A DNA stretch of 32,000 nt from Pseudomonas aeruginosa (GTDB lineage: Bacteria; Pseudomonadota; Gammaproteobacteria; Pseudomonadales; Pseudomonadaceae). Location: positions 150,001-182,000 of the forward strand of contig NZ_LN831024.1 of NCBI RefSeq assembly GCF_001457615.1, written 5' to 3'. This document shows, piece by piece, positions 1,828-19,020 of the stretch. Below the pieces are notes generated by a model. It made no database searches, was not told where the DNA came from, and worked only from the letters and a program-made list of their open reading frames with translations. The translations under genes and the position numbers were made by a program. Position 1 is the stretch's first letter; every line of letters starts with the position of its first letter.

Positions 1828-3126
1828 TCACCCCTTCACATGGCGCCGCTCCCCCATCACCCAGGTCTCCGCCACCGCGCGGTCGTCGCCCAGGGTGTTC
1901 AGCACGAACAGGGTATCGGCCAGGCCGCGCGCATGCTCCATGCGCTGGGCGATCATCGGCGTGGCGGCCAGGTCGAGGGCGACGAAGTCGGCTTCGCGGC
2001 CGGGCAGGAAGTTACCGACCAGGCCGTCCAGGTCGAGCGCCCTGGCGCCGCCGAGGGTGGCCAGGTAGAGCGCCTGGAACGGATCGAGGCTGGTGCCGCG
2101 CAATTGCTGGATCTTGTAGGCGTCGGCGAGGTTGGCCAGCAGCGACAGGCTGGTGCCGCCGCCGACGTCGCTACCGATGCCGACGCGGATGCCGTATTGC
2201 TGGGCGCGGCCAAGGTCGAACAGGCCGGAGCCGATGAACAGGTTGGAACTGGGACAGTGCGCCAGCGCCGCGTTCTTGTGCGCCAGGCAGCGGCATTCGC
2301 GTTCGGAGAGATGGATGCCATGGGCGAACACGCTGCGTTCGCCGACCAGGCCGGCGCGATGATAGACGTCCAGGTAGTCCTGCGCCTGGGGAAACAGCTC
2401 GCCGACCCAGGCGACTTCCTTGAGGTTCTCCGAAAGATGGGTGTGCAGGTAGACGCCGGGATACTCGTCCAGCAGGCGCGCCGCCGCGGCCAGTTGCTCG
2501 GGCGAGGAGGTCGGCGCGAAGCGCGGGGTGACCGCGTATTGCAGGCGCCCGTTGCCGTGCCAGCGCTCGATCAGCGCGCGGCTCTCGGCGTAGCCACTGG
2601 CCGCGGTATCGCACAGCGCCGGCGGCGCGTTGCGGTCCATCAGCACCTTGCCGGCGATCATCCGCAGGCGGCGCTTCTGCGCGGCCTGGAAGAATGCCTC
2701 GGCGGATACCGCATGGACCGTGCCGAACACCAGCGCGGTAGTGGTGCCGTGGCGCAGCAGTTCGTCGAGGAACAGCTCGGCCTGGGCGGCGGCGTAGCCG
2801 GCATCGGCAAAGCGCTGCTCGGCGGGAAAGGTGTGGGTTTCCAGCCAGTCCAGCAGTTGGGTGCCGTAGGAGGCGATCACTCCGAGTTGCGGGTAATGCA
2901 CATGGCAGTCGACGAAGCCGGGCAGCAGCAGGCGCTGCGGATGGTCCTCCAGCGGCAGGTCGGCGGGCAGTTGCGGCAGCAGGTAGGTTGCGTGATCGAG
3001 CGCGCGCACGTGGCCGTGTTCGATCCACAGCAGGCCGTCCTCGAAATACTCCCAGGCCTTGTCGCCGAGTTTCGCCGGGTCGCCGAGGAAATGCAGGATC
3101 CGCCCGCGATGGGCCGAACTGCTCAT
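1828..3126 (-). CDS. guaD: guanine deaminase (amidohydrolase superfamily)
   Basis: The ORF 1828..3198 shows strong colinear similarity, by recall, to E. coli GuaD: PGFVDCHVHYPQ (HxH), TALVFGTVH, RMIAGKVLMDRNAP, AVTPRFAPTSSPEQL, HTHLSEN, HCPSSNLFIGSG, GIGSDVGGG, LATLGGA. I prefer the internal ATG at 3126 (MSSSAHRGRILHF), which has GGCGGGAG upstream and aligns with the GuaD N-terminus. The 3198 start would add 24 unconserved residues. Confidence 0.9.
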   Translation of the reverse strand: MSSSAHRGRILHFLGDPAKLGDKAWEYFEDGLLWIEHGHVRALDHATYLLPQLPADLPLEDHPQRLLLPGFVDCHVHYPQLGVIASYGTQLLDWLETHTFPAEQRFADAGYAAAQAELFLDELLRHGTTTALVFGTVHAVSAEAFFQAAQKRRLRMIAGKVLMDRNAPPALCDTAASGYAESRALIERWHGNGRLQYAVTPRFAPTSSPEQLAAAARLLDEYPGVYLHTHLSENLKEVAWVGELFPQAQDYLDVYHRAGLVGERSVFAHGIHLSERECRCLAHKNAALAHCPSSNLFIGSGLFDLGRAQQYGIRVGIGSDVGGGTSLSLLANLADAYKIQQLRGTSLDPFQALYLATLGGARALDLDGLVGNFLPGREADFVALDLAATPMIAQRMEHARGLADTLFVLNTLGDDRAVAETWVMGERRHVKG

Positions 3127-3308
3127 CGCGCTCCCGCCGTGGTCGGAGTGCAGGATAAGTGGGGGGACGAAGTTGCCAGCAGGTACTGCATCGTTCATCT
3201 CCTCTGCTGCCGGAATGGCGCTTTCGCCTCTTTAGTCCGGGAAATCGACGGAAATATCCCGTCTTTGGCGCGTGATCTCGCTTCCGCCATTATGCACTGT
3301 GCGCATGC

Positions 3309-4076
3309 TGTGGATAAGTCTGTGTGTAGCGCGTGTGCGGAAAGATTGCACGAGCCATTGCGGGATGTGCCCATCTGGCTGCCGGCAGGCGATCCGCGGA
3401 AAGCGTTCCGGCACCTTGAATCCGCCTTGCGAAATGCCCGGTCGGCAACTGGCGCTTCTGTGGGTTTGTCTGTGGAAAAGCTGTTCGCATTCCCCGTTGA
3501 AAAAATGCCTTCGGCGGTCGAGGGAAAGGCATTGGACGGGGCCGCAGGATTTCTCCCGATTGGCGAAAGAGCCAGAGAAAAAGCGCTGTGGAATGCGCCA
3601 CGACAGTGCATCGCGAAACTGTGGACAGCGGATCCACCCATGGCGCCGCCGAGCATGCTTCCGTCGATCGCCGCGGACTTTCCTGGAAAGCCGGAAAACC
3701 CAGTATTCATGGGCATCATGGCGTCTAAAGGGGAAGTCCTGGAGACATTTTCACGGGCATTCCCGTTCCGCGGGTTTCCTGTGGAAAAGCTGTTGGCAAA
3801 CTGTGCCGGAAGCGGGCCGCCGGGGCTGCCCCAGGGATTCGGCCGACCCGTGGCTTGGCCGGGAGAGATCGTCCTGCCGTGCTCCTCCGAACGGCTGTCG
3901 ATATCTTGTGGATAAAGCTGTTGGCAAAGTGTTGGAAAAAATGCCTTGCCAGGTCGCGCCCATGGCCTGCCGGGTTGGCTGTTTTCTGTCCATCGCCATG
4001 TTGCGAAAATCGCCGGGACGATCGGCGCGGGAGGCTTCCCAAGGTCCCGGATGGGCTCCCGACACGCTGTGGATAA
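3309..4076 (+). promoter_or_regulatory. cluster of co-oriented DnaA-box motifs (TGTGGATAA, which is TTATCCACA on the minus strand) in an ORF-free gap
   Basis: Perfect 9-mers at 3309-3317, 3907-3915 and 4068-4076. 8/9 matches (TGTGGAAAA) at 3471-3479 and 3780-3788. A 7/9 match (TGTGGACAG) at 3620-3628. All are on the same strand. I found no other perfect copy in the 32 kb. Confidence 0.6.
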
Positions 4077-4307
4077 CTCTGTGAGCAAGGTGGTGATGAC
4101 TGTTTTGCGACAAATGCTCACGCGGGTGCGCCGCAGGGTTGCCCGCAAATGTGCCGCGGCGTCCCAGGCGTGCCCCGGCTTGGTGCCGCTCGGCGCGGGA
4201 GCCTGGCCCGTGGCTCCCGGTGCAAGCCGCGTTCCAGGGCTTTCCTGACCTCCTGGCCAGGTATTTGCACCGGCCGCCGCATCGTCGAGCAACCGATCGG
4301 GTCCGCC

Positions 4308-17002: not shown

Positions 17003-17965
17003 TTGGACCGTCTACCCATCATCGACATCGCCCCGCTCTACGGCGCCGACCGTGGCGCCTGGAACGACGTGGCGCGGCGGATCGACCAGGCCTGCCGCGA
17101 GTGGGGCTTCTTCTACATCGCCGGACACCCGCTGCCGGCCGCGCGCTTCGAAGCCCTGTTGGCGGCGGCGCGGGAGTTCTTCGCGCTGCCCGTCGAAGAG
17201 AAGCTGAAGATCGATATCACCCGTAGCCGCAATCATCGCGGCTATGGCGCGATCGCCACCGAGCAGCTCGACCCGGCGTTGCCCAGCGACTTCAAGGAGA
17301 CCTTCGACATGGCCCTGCACCTGCCGGCGGAGCATCCCGACGTGCGCGCCGGCAAGTCCTTCTACGGGCCCAACCGACACCCCGACCTGCCCGGCTGGGA
17401 GGCCCTGCTGGAAGGACACTATGCCGACATGCTGGCGCTGGCCCGTACCGTGCTGCGCGCCCTGGCCATCGCCCTGGGGATCGAGGAGGACTTCTTCGAT
17501 CGCCGCTTCGAGCAGCCGGTCAGCGTGTTCCGCCTGATCCACTATCCGCCGGCCTCGGCCCGGCAGAGCGCCGACCAGCCCGGCGCCGGCGCGCACACCG
17601 ACTACGGCTGCGTGACCCTGCTCTACCAGGACGCCGCCGGTGGCCTGCAAGTGCAGAACCGCCAGGGCGAATGGATCGACGCGCCGCCCATCGACGGCAC
17701 CTTCGTGGTCAACATCGGCGACATGATGGCGCGCTGGAGCAACGACCGTTACCGCTCGACCCCGCACCGGGTGATCAGCCCGCGCGGGGTGCACCGCTAC
17801 TCCATGCCGTTCTTCGCCGAACCGCACATGGACACCGAGATCCGCTGCCTGCCGGGCTGCTTCGACGCGGACAACCCGCCGAAGTATCCGCCGACCACCT
17901 GTGGCGATTGGCTGACCTCGCGCTTCGCGCAGACCTATGCCTATCGGCGCGGCGAAACGGCCTGA
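17003..17965 (+). CDS. 2-oxoglutarate/Fe(II)-dependent oxygenase (isopenicillin N synthase-like family), substrate unknown
   Basis: Frame of ORF 16940..17965. There is no ATG near the 5' end. The TTG at 17003 has AGGAG 7 nt upstream and gives MDRLPIIDIAPLY..., the usual N-terminus for this family. The facial triad is HTD (GAHTDYG) plus H (STPHRV), with RYS for 2OG binding. The TTG at 16940 is the alternative start. Confidence 0.8.
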   Translation: MDRLPIIDIAPLYGADRGAWNDVARRIDQACREWGFFYIAGHPLPAARFEALLAAAREFFALPVEEKLKIDITRSRNHRGYGAIATEQLDPALPSDFKETFDMALHLPAEHPDVRAGKSFYGPNRHPDLPGWEALLEGHYADMLALARTVLRALAIALGIEEDFFDRRFEQPVSVFRLIHYPPASARQSADQPGAGAHTDYGCVTLLYQDAAGGLQVQNRQGEWIDAPPIDGTFVVNIGDMMARWSNDRYRSTPHRVISPRGVHRYSMPFFAEPHMDTEIRCLPGCFDADNPPKYPPTTCGDWLTSRFAQTYAYRRGETA

Positions 17966-18069
17966 GCCGCCCGTCGCGCGCGGGAGCGGCTCGCGGGTTT
18001 GCCGCGGGCCTGACTCCCGGGACAGGTTAAACTTGCCGGCCAAGACCAGCCTGATCGAGAACCCACCCC

Positions 18070-19020
18070 ATGTATGAATGGCTCAACGCCTTGCCCAAGG
18101 CCGAACTGCACCTGCACCTGGAAGGTACCCTGGAGCCGGAGCTGCTGTTCGCCCTCGCCGAGCGCAACCGCATCGCCCTGCCCTGGAACGACGTCGAGAC
18201 CCTGCGCAAGGCCTACGCCTTCAACAACCTGCAGGAATTCCTCGACCTCTACTACGCCGGCGCCGACGTGCTGCGCACCGAGCAGGACTTCTACGACCTG
18301 ACCTGGGCCTACCTGCAGAAGTGCAAGGCGCAGAACGTCGTCCACGTCGAGCCGTTCTTCGACCCGCAGACCCACACCGATCGCGGCATTCCCTTCGAGG
18401 TGGTGCTCGCCGGCATCCGCGCCGCGCTACGGGACGGCGAGAAGCTGCTGGGCATCCGCCATGGGCTGATCCTCAGCTTCCTCCGCCACCTCAGCGAGGA
18501 ACAGGCGCAGAAAACCCTCGACCAGGCGCTGCCGTTCCGCGACGCCTTCATCGCCGTCGGCCTCGACAGCTCGGAAGTAGGGCATCCGCCGAGCAAGTTC
18601 CAGCGGGTCTTCGACCGGGCCCGCAGCGAAGGCTTCCTCACCGTCGCCCATGCCGGCGAGGAGGGGCCGCCCGAGTACATATGGGAAGCCCTCGACCTGC
18701 TCAAGGTCGAGCGCATCGACCACGGCGTACGCGCCTTCGAGGACGAGCGGCTGATGCGGCGGCTGATCGACGAACAGATCCCGCTGACCGTCTGCCCGCT
18801 GTCCAACACCAAGCTCTGCGTGTTCGACGACATGAGCCAGCACACCATCCTCGACATGCTCGAACGCGGCGTGAAGGTGACGGTGAACTCCGATGACCCG
18901 GCCTACTTCGGCGGCTATGTCACCGAGAACTTCCATGCCTTGCAGCAGAGCCTGGGAATGACCGAGGAGCAGGCCAGGCGCCTGGCGCAGAACAGCCTGG
19001 ATGCGCGCCTGGTGAAGTGA
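18070..19020 (+). CDS. adenosine-deaminase-fold adenine deaminase (cog1816-type)
   Basis: 316-aa [30 protein letters not shown]...TVAHAGEEG...IDHGVR...[10 protein letters not shown]. These are ADA-family metal ligands. The short ADA-like proteins of this type in Pseudomonas are, from memory, adenine deaminases. Confidence 0.88.

Follow-up and report, generated by a model that had tools for sequence, protein, structure and literature searches.

The window analyzed here is a 32,000-nt stretch of Pseudomonas aeruginosa DNA (NZ_LN831024.1, positions 150,001 to 182,000), with a G+C content of about 68% and the gene order of that species. Between positions 1828 and 19020, it contains a block of genes, most of them acting on purines or nucleosides, whose proteins are 93–98% identical to their P. 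paraeruginosa counterparts. Our main subject is an ATP-binding cassette (ABC) importer within this block. One operon encodes its ATPase (abcA) and two permeases (prm1 and prm2), and a gene for a solute-binding protein (SBP) of the BMP family is located far downstream. The importer has the architecture of the CUT2/BMP type, with a fused double-ABC ATPase and two BPD_transp_2 permeases, both carrying PF02653. Genes were mapped by framing according to GC3 and codon-position G+C content, combined with Pfam and NCBIfam profile searches (Table 1). The map bears out the gene inventory and coordinates of an earlier note on this DNA, three details aside, together with its remark that the block contains no regulator gene.

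Table 1. Genes, promoter elements and other features of the block, with positions in the window.
Feature	Position	Strand	Basis and remarks
Guanine deaminase 'GuaD2' (second copy, P. aeruginosa-specific)	1828-3126	-	NF006679 667 bits; NF006679/TIGR02967 above cutoff
Gene-free spacer, 1.1 kb	3127-4307		No convincing open reading frame (ORF); GC 0.60
Five DnaA-box-like sites, 3 x TTATCCACA and 2 x TTTTCCACA	3309-4076	- (all one strand)	Within spacer 3127-4307
Sigma-54-type -24/-12 element TGGCCAGGTATTTGCA	4254-4269	+	54 nt before abcA ATG
ABC ATPase (abcA), CUT2/BMP type, two ABC_tran domains	4308-5879	+	Best NCBIfam match BMP-type 'B6 ABC' ATPase, below cutoff
Permease 1 (prm1), BPD_transp_2	5879-6976	+	Pfam 3.9e-58
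Permease 2 (prm2), BPD_transp_2	6998-7924	+	Pfam 3.8e-36
ahpC	8089-8652	+	Pfam
ahpF	8797-10362	+	Pfam
PPK2 polyphosphate kinase (ppk2)	10442-11395	-	TIGR03707 391 bits, above cutoff
Conserved 5′ untranslated region (5′ UTR) RNA motif	11668-11797	+	P0 hairpin, invariant core, lineage-specific 3′ platform
8-oxoguanine deaminase (oxGD), frameshifted	11795-13143	+	NF006055 558 bits, above cutoff on C-terminal part alone
Nuh, purine ribonucleoside hydrolase with N-terminal signal peptide	13251-14303	+	IU_nuc_hydro 1e-98
Nuc_deoxyrib_tr protein with twin-arginine signal (PA0144 orthologue)	14331-14957	-	PF05014
Second Nuc_deoxyrib_tr paralogue, cytoplasmic, no signal peptide	15079-15594	-	PF05014
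Sigma-54-type -24/-12 element TGGTCAGGTAATTGCA	15748-15763	+	85 nt before SBP ATG
BMP-family SBP	15833-16930	+	PF02608, 185.5 bits vs cutoff 24.1
Fe(II)/2-oxoglutarate oxygenase	17003-17965	+	DIOX_N and 2OG-FeII_Oxy
Adenine deaminase (ade), adenosine-deaminase fold	18070-19020	+	PF00962

To place the two parts of the importer in their evolutionary context, we mapped the window's proteins by tblastn onto 84 loci with an SBP orthologue (51–98% identity), collected from contigs sampled at one genome per species and from others that carry homologues. The order abcA-prm1-prm2-SBP is contiguous on one strand in 46 of these loci, which span the alpha-, beta- and gammaproteobacteria, with a median gap of 124 nt; the adjacency in relatives that the earlier note had named as a check is therefore present. 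The distance between prm2 and the SBP gene is 0.4–2.5 kb in 10 of the loci and exceeds 2.5 kb in 14, mostly Pseudomonas; in another eight, the 10 kb upstream of the SBP gene contain no ABC genes. At 7,908 nt, the window has the widest gap of the 84; fluorescens-group Pseudomonas have gaps of 3.5–4.9 kb, and in Stutzerimonas, Phytohalomonas and some Pseudomonas the 8-oxoguanine deaminase gene (oxGD) alone stands between permease 2 and the SBP. A tblastn search of the SBP against the whole window returned one copy only, with no SBP remnant near the permeases, and a screen of the spacer at 3127–4307 for such a remnant or any ORF found neither. For all four importer proteins, the BMP-type 'B6 ABC' system ranks first among the NCBIfam matches, and all sugar-transporter equivalogs of NCBIfam score far below cutoff.

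The genes that separate the two halves differ in how widely they are shared. In the sampled loci, neither the other genera nor fluorescens-group Pseudomonas have ahpCF at this position, and the combination of ahpCF and ppk2 is confined to the P. aeruginosa/paraeruginosa arrangement. The same holds for nuh and the transferase pair, except for one transferase-like match in locus L006. The oxygenase gene follows the SBP gene in nearly all gammaproteobacterial loci, and the recurrent neighbors of the SBP gene are base deaminases (adenine, guanine and 8-oxoguanine), not kinases or phosphorylases. By this distribution, the block is a mosaic, in which the ABC genes, oxGD, SBP, oxygenase and adenine deaminase form a core common across Pseudomonas, and guaD2, ahpCF, ppk2, nuh and the transferase pair are additions of the P. 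aeruginosa lineage. Two loci deserve separate mention. In a metagenome-assembled genome of the Casimicrobiaceae (L083), a PPK2 homologue of 64% identity at 11209-12072 lies directly 3′ of the SBP gene, the sole other sampled locus that links ppk2 to the transporter. A contig labelled Gordonia sp. IEGM753 (L017, JBNQGB010000008.1) has the arrangement of the Pseudomonas fluorescens group, with 74–87% protein identity to the window, and its label is probably due to contamination or mislabelling.

Each half of the importer is preceded by its own sigma-54-type promoter element, TGGCCAGGTATTTGCA upstream of abcA and TGGTCAGGTAATTGCA upstream of the SBP gene. They share 14 of their 16 positions, and both match the pattern by which sigma-54 promoters were recognized (TGG-N8-TTGC, with the -24 GG and the -12 GC exactly 10 nt apart, at a suitable distance from a start codon). 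With its conserved 5′ extension (CTGACC / TTGTCC), the element recurs upstream of abcA and the SBP gene in essentially all gammaproteobacterial loci, including those of genera with a contiguous operon, and the SBP-type element is kept in 32 SBP loci, other genera included. It is present in none of 33 regions upstream of oxGD and none of 23 upstream of ade. Most Pseudomonas loci also have a GCACCA-N5-TGGC element 80–185 nt upstream of the SBP promoter (15659-15680 in the window), which may be a site for an enhancer-binding protein; the search upstream of the SBP promoter did not find a canonical NtrC site (TGCACC-N5-GGTGCA), from which this element differs in spacing. Consensus scans for sigma-70 promoters and terminators gave counts no higher than those of shuffled sequences.

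Published expression data tie both halves to RpoN. In the study of Schulz et al. 2015 (PMC4362757), abcA (PA14_01670) belongs to the primary RpoN regulon by chromatin immunoprecipitation (ChIP), RNA and motif, and the permeases, the SBP, the oxygenase and PA0144 belong to it by RNA and motif; RpoN ChIP enrichment was reported for the abcA promoter only. In an rpoN mutant of PA14 under nitrogen limitation, the log2 fold changes were -7.87, -8.92 and -7.55 for abcA, prm1 and prm2, -5.40 for the SBP, -3.57 for the oxygenase, -1.89 for adenine deaminase and -2.4 for PA0144, with no significant change for guaD, ahpCF, ppk2, oxGD, nuh and the second transferase (PMC4362757). The same study found guaD down in an algU mutant and listed ahpC under RpoD (PMC4362757), and nuh is controlled by LasR and quorum sensing (PMC5437708). 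According to published predictions for PA14, the SBP and oxygenase genes form one transcription unit, and seven units lie between the permeases and the SBP gene, where the earlier note had counted five. Co-regulation through RpoN is therefore limited to one part of the block, the ABC, SBP, oxygenase, ade and PA0144 genes, and does not extend to guaD, ahpCF, ppk2, oxGD, nuh and the second transferase. A regulon comprising the whole block, which the note had raised, is contradicted by its separate inputs: RpoN for the ABC genes, the SBP-oxygenase unit and PA0144, LasR for nuh, AlgU for guaD and RpoD for ahpC.

The two importer halves are co-regulated, and they are induced together under nitrogen limitation because each carries its own copy of the same sigma-54 promoter. 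Synteny across the 84 genomes, the shared sigma-54-type promoter and the common dependence on RpoN agree with each other, and therefore strongly support the prediction that the ABC operon without an SBP and the BMP gene far downstream make up one transporter, which is the split importer that the earlier note had suspected. Previous literature evidently overlooked this pairing. The genes PA0136-0138 have been called a monosaccharide ABC system, and their P. stutzeri orthologue was said to lack an SBP (PMC7232493); in P. stutzeri-type genomes, the SBP gene lies one gene downstream of the permeases. Locus-tag searches of the literature, whose results were mostly antibody-catalogue noise, found no paper treating PA0136-0138 and PA0146 as one system.

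What the importer carries is suggested by the relatives of its SBP. The protein begins with an export signal (MKHRRTQSRMSVLRRLAAVLGLGACALAAEA), and its nearest solved structures are 3S99 (E = 1e-121) and AtzT (3e-113), to which the mature protein is 55% and 52% identical. PnrA/TmpC (2FQW) and BmpD (6SHU) yielded only partial alignments, with E-values of 2e-6 and 1e-4. The SBP thus lacks the close similarity to PnrA/TmpC or BmpD that marks a PnrA-type nucleoside binder, and its specificity is probably not the one that the label 'BMP/PnrA-like' in the earlier note suggests. Residues S102, F103, R144, E170, W199, H223 and D225 do not vary in any of the 85 orthologues and match their counterparts in 3S99; W50 also equals the 3S99 residue and is replaced by Y in 3 of the 85. 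Of the contact residues of AtzT, the SBP keeps S102, F103, E170 and W199. AtzT co-purifies with guanine, which it binds with a dissociation constant of 0.11 μM, compared with 2.5 μM for adenine and 620 μM or weaker for pyrimidines; GTP, at >8 mM, showed no measurable binding (PMC6834077). Adenine has been modelled in the 3S99 pocket (PMC6834077). By its close relationship and its conserved ligand contacts, the SBP is predicted to belong to the purine-base clade of 3S99 and AtzT, and because its pocket is conserved and the nearest structures are base-bound, the most likely ligand is a free purine base rather than a nucleoside. Adenine is the most likely substrate predicted for the importer, with guanine or hypoxanthine as possible others. 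According to a 2017 review, the inner-membrane adenine transporter of P. aeruginosa had not been identified.

The base-binding clade of the SBP fits the cleavage of nucleosides in the periplasm before their uptake. Nuh is periplasmic (PMC5437708), and the window's protein has a 40-residue N-terminal extension (MSRAARPCNRFCSLLLGLALLMPASLPLSA). In PA14, nuh is annotated from the ATG corresponding to 13314, without the signal peptide; translation from the upstream ATG at 13251 gives a normal Sec signal (…LPLSA/AE), in keeping with the location reported. PA0144, the PAO1/PA14 orthologue of the protein encoded at 14331-14957, is an experimentally validated substrate of twin-arginine (Tat) export; the nearest structures to the window's protein are trypanosomatid purine 2′-deoxyribosyltransferases, with retention of the catalytic GTAFE motif. 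At 72% identity, the two deoxyribosyltransferase-like genes form a tandem pair of paralogues; since a twin-arginine signal and RpoN dependence belong to the first alone, one copy was retargeted to the periplasm.

Additional copies of nuh and of the gene for adenine deaminase accelerate growth on adenosine, and a 12.4-kb amplification from nuh to PA0148 was selected on this substrate. The closest characterized relative of the oxygenase is fungal thymine 7-hydroxylase, a nucleobase oxidase (3e-53), and a role for the oxygenase in the purine system is predicted. Strain PA14 has an additional gene between nuh and PA0144, PA14_01770, which encodes a putative nucleoside-binding (Tsx-like) outer-membrane protein of the RpoN regulon, and its expression falls in the rpoN mutant (PMC4362757). 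In the window, a mere 27-nt gap (14304-14330) separates nuh from the transferase gene, and the Tsx-like gene is absent.

We propose, with a probability of about 0.7, that the block encodes a free-purine-base ABC importer that was split by insertions and whose halves are coupled by duplicate sigma-54 promoters. The ancestral operon would have had the order ATPase-permease-permease-SBP, and oxGD would have been the first insertion between the permeases and the SBP in Pseudomonas. Later insertions in the P. aeruginosa lineage, one of ahpCF with ppk2 and one of nuh with the two deoxyribosyltransferase-like genes, would then have displaced the SBP gene to 7.9 kb downstream of the permeases. Under nitrogen limitation, sigma-54 would turn on the permease operon, the SBP-oxygenase(-adenine deaminase) unit and the Tat-exported transferase-like enzyme, and in PA14-like strains the Tsx-like channel gene as well. 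Periplasmic nucleosides would be cleaved by Nuh (ribonucleosides) and by the Tat-exported enzyme (deoxyribonucleosides), and the freed base would be bound by the SBP and imported by the ABC complex. In the cytoplasm, adenine, guanine and 8-oxoguanine deaminases would release ammonia, and the resulting hypoxanthine, xanthine and urate would feed a purine degradation pathway encoded elsewhere. The parts of this proposal that we infer are the ligand of the SBP, its partnership with the permeases and the roles of the transferase-like protein and the oxygenase.

Several points weigh against this proposal. The eight SBP genes that lie apart from ABC genes suggest that the SBP could, in principle, serve another partner, and its physical partnership with the permeases, like its ligand and the permeases' transport function, is a prediction from sequence. 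AtzT has N218 and N220 where the SBP has H223 and D225, so that the affinity for guanine may not transfer. Nuh is not RpoN-dependent, and periplasmic cleavage and uptake are consequently not strictly co-induced. The spacing of GCACCA-N5-TGGC is non-canonical, and we do not claim NtrC as the activator of the sigma-54 promoters. Finally, nucleosides were outside the panel of compounds offered to AtzT, and nucleoside binding within the clade is formally possible. This last point, together with the Bmp/PnrA-like Pfam domain of the SBP and the name 'nucleoside-binding protein' that several sources give to its orthologues, would favor an importer of the PnrA/BmpD type, whose SBP binds adenosine, inosine or guanosine and whose accompanying hydrolases work chiefly on surplus nucleoside or once it has been imported. 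We consider such an importer unlikely: the E-values for 2FQW and 6SHU stand against far stronger ones for the base-binding structures, the pocket of the orthologues is identical to that of adenine-bound 3S99, the periplasmic location of Nuh and PA0144 would have nucleosides split before they reach the inner membrane, and the SBP gene recurs beside base deaminases instead of kinases or phosphorylases.

The two other alternatives concern the block and not the ligand. With a purine or nucleoside theme in 11 of 13 genes, and with the adenosine-selected nuh-PA0148 amplification, the whole block might be a single regulon under one hidden regulator; we judge this improbable, as published expression data reveal at least four regulatory inputs (RpoN, LasR, AlgU and RpoD), the sigma-54 element is missing upstream of all sampled oxGD and ade genes, and oxGD has a leader RNA of its own. 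At the other extreme, the neighborhood could be a coincidental mosaic, in which the SBP works with another transporter or as a sensor or chemotaxis partner, and the ABC genes encode a monosaccharide importer with its SBP elsewhere. The monosaccharide label of PA0136-0138 and the report of a P. stutzeri orthologue without SBP (PMC7232493) point in this direction, as do the clearly unrelated insertions of ahpCF and ppk2 and the eight loci with an SBP gene and no ABC genes nearby. This explanation appears very improbable in view of the 46 alpha-, beta- and gammaproteobacterial genomes in which all four orthologues are contiguous, the P. stutzeri-type SBP one gene downstream of the permeases, the same promoter type with joint RpoN dependence, and the low scores of the sugar equivalogs.

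Two non-coding elements of the block raise questions of their own, the first of which is a leader RNA upstream of oxGD. Its invariant sequence consists of CCUGGAUCAGCAGACAGG, followed by 3–7 variable nt and ACUGAGCUGG; in the window, the 36-nt core, ACCUGGAUCAGCAGACAGG-N-ACUGAGCUGGC, is at 11698-11733. This sequence is found in every Pseudomonas or Stutzerimonas locus where an oxGD orthologue of 80% identity or more is preceded by an intergenic leader. Scanning metagenomes with a 16-mer added 56 further instances with the extended core, from hosts of high and low G+C content; in those with enough sequence, the next ORF always begins with the N-terminus of an 8-oxoguanine deaminase (..RIWIKNPLAIFTAN..). 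The motif now comprises 67 unique sequences, all upstream of 8-oxoguanine deaminase genes, and was not found with distant oxGD paralogues (26–62% identity). Rfam 15 contains no match, either for the whole window at the gathering threshold or for 11396-11830 at E ≤ 10. A different conserved element, AGAGUAGAAGCGGUCAGRGGC…GGGACAUUGCUCUU, is present in L025 (~12730-12900, minus strand) and L027 (~12490-12660, minus strand), where it precedes a distant (38–39%) amidohydrolase paralogue beside the SBP gene in Marinobacter-type loci; it may be another leader RNA.

The P0 hairpin directly adjoins the core and has 42 different stem sequences among the 67 leaders. At least five uninterrupted base pairs ending at the fixed position are formed in 76% of leaders, compared with 24% of shuffled controls. 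P0 was analyzed by a position-anchored script; MAFFT/RNAalifold were unable to align the variable P0, and returned a model of the invariant core only, without compensatory changes. A -10-like TAAACT or TAGACT precedes the hairpin, and the PA14 transcription start site, 125 nt upstream of the oxGD start codon, coincides with the start of P0. The 3′ part of the leader is lineage-specific, and in P. aeruginosa and the fluorescens group segments of the core can pair with the Shine-Dalgarno region, which this platform could thereby sequester. Candidate folds of the core are a CCUG/CAGG pairing with a possible pseudoknot or, as modelled by RNAalifold, UCAGC/GCUGG plus a CAG/CUG hairpin, between which covariation cannot decide because the core never varies. 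A fifth base pair of P1 was rejected, as it is not consistently paired.

As a 5′ UTR element with a covarying hairpin, a single associated gene family and a variable platform, the leader has the structural hallmarks of a riboswitch and is a candidate for a new class; possibly, it is instead bound by a protein or small RNA and does not sense a ligand. If it is a riboswitch, its sequences indicate that it would be structurally unrelated to the known 8-oxoguanine class and would have spread over the Proteobacteria and beyond. The only 8-oxoguanine riboswitch described is a guanine-I variant that is rare and found in Paenibacillaceae only (PMC10556655).

The second element is a set of DnaA-box-like sites in the spacer upstream of the transporter operon. 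The five sites are all the matches to TTATCCACA with at most one mismatch in the 32-kb window, for which the mean expected by chance is 1.43, and all five fall within 770 bp, embedded in longer repeats of the low-G+C spacer. Perfect DnaA boxes also occur in the orthologous spacer upstream of abcA in most Pseudomonas species. The fluorescens group has two of them at about -480 and -280, 202 nt apart and each preceded by a degenerate box, together with a third box, in inverted orientation, directly next to the -12 element of the sigma-54 promoter (TGGCCAGGAAATTGCTTTATCCACAGG). The array therefore exhibits, at the level of sequence, clustering and conservation of the datA/DARS kind, and it is a candidate for repressing the importer or for acting as datA or DARS does. 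A 2026 paper counts 129 TTWTNCACA boxes in the whole P. aeruginosa genome and calls its gidA result the first demonstration of direct transcriptional regulation by DnaA in this species (PMC13438810); its main text does not mention the array locus, and we found no DnaA ChIP or electrophoretic mobility shift data on the array in the literature. For the two elements, we offer tentative suggestions only, to which we give less than even odds: that the leader is a second riboswitch class sensing 8-oxoguanine or a close purine oxidation product and, as a second reading, that the array couples DnaA to sigma-54-dependent purine uptake or is datA/DARS-like.

For the remaining genes of the block, the profile assignments are complemented by a few observations. 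Two copies of GuaD have been reported in P. aeruginosa only (PMC11651626). The ahpCF genes are an inserted oxidative-stress unit outside the purine system. The start of ppk2 is possibly the GTG at 11338, as annotated in PA14. The oxGD product matches PDB entry 7WW2, '8-oxoguanine deaminase', with an E-value of 7e-89, and its gene has a -1 frameshift where the C-run at 12087-12089 reads CCC, compared with CCCC in P. paraeruginosa, making it either a strain-specific pseudogene or a sequencing error. The ade product is essentially identical to PDB entries 3OU8, 3PAN, 3PAO and 3PBM.

Gene functions and expression data for this locus were already public, and the main finding is their integration and a re-annotation, which does not amount to a novel type of system; novelty is likeliest for the DnaA-box array and the oxGD leader RNA. 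P. aeruginosa gains a concrete candidate for its inner-membrane importer of purine bases, the missing step of the Nuh 'private good' system, and the labelling of PA0136-0138 as a sugar transporter without an SBP is corrected. The locus also provides an example of a transporter operon that was pulled apart by insertions and stays functionally coupled through a promoter copy for each half. For quorum-sensing models of 'metabolic incentive' on adenosine, it would mean that the Nuh product is taken up under the control of nitrogen (RpoN) and not of LasR. If the leader is a riboswitch, it would be a new and widespread sensor of oxidized purines, and the DnaA boxes, should they prove functional, would connect purine scavenging in Pseudomonas with the control of replication.

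The two non-coding elements have known counterparts. Like the guanine-I variant, an ON switch sensing 8-oxoguanine (PMC10556655), the leader is a 5′ UTR element located exclusively upstream of 8-oxoguanine deaminase genes. Unlike that variant, it has no similarity to the purine riboswitch fold, comprises about 60 nt with one covarying hairpin and a 36-nt core, occurs in Proteobacteria and, in metagenomes, in other phyla, and is a putative ligand sensor only. The array shares with E. coli datA/DARS and with the DnaA-box clusters of B. subtilis the grouping of high-affinity boxes in non-coding DNA outside oriC, and differs from datA/DARS in box number, spacing and orientation. Promoters repressed by DnaA include guaB and nrdAB; similarly, the fluorescens-group box adjoins the -12 element of a purine-related promoter, although its association with a sigma-54 promoter is unusual.

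The importer itself shares with other BMP-family importers (PnrA/TmpC, BmpD and NupABC-BmpA) the PF02608 SBP fold, a fused double ATPase with two BPD_transp_2 permeases and a role in purine scavenging. It differs from these nucleoside importers in that its SBP falls into a distinct clade whose solved members hold adenine or guanine, and in that the SBP gene is last, not first, in the ancestral order and now lies 7.9 kb off with its own duplicate sigma-54 promoter, while nucleoside cleavage is shifted to the periplasm. The closest structural counterpart of the SBP is Brucella BAB2_0673 (PDB 3S99), a 'basic membrane lipoprotein', which is identical at all ligand-contact positions. Neither this protein nor AtzT of Pseudomonas sp. 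ADP (PDB 6PI5/6PI6) has been linked by experiment to a transporter. AtzT shares the S, F, E and W contacts, and has Asn/Asn where the SBP and 3S99 have His/Asp and Tyr where both have Trp; it is plasmid-borne and was recruited for hydroxyatrazine.

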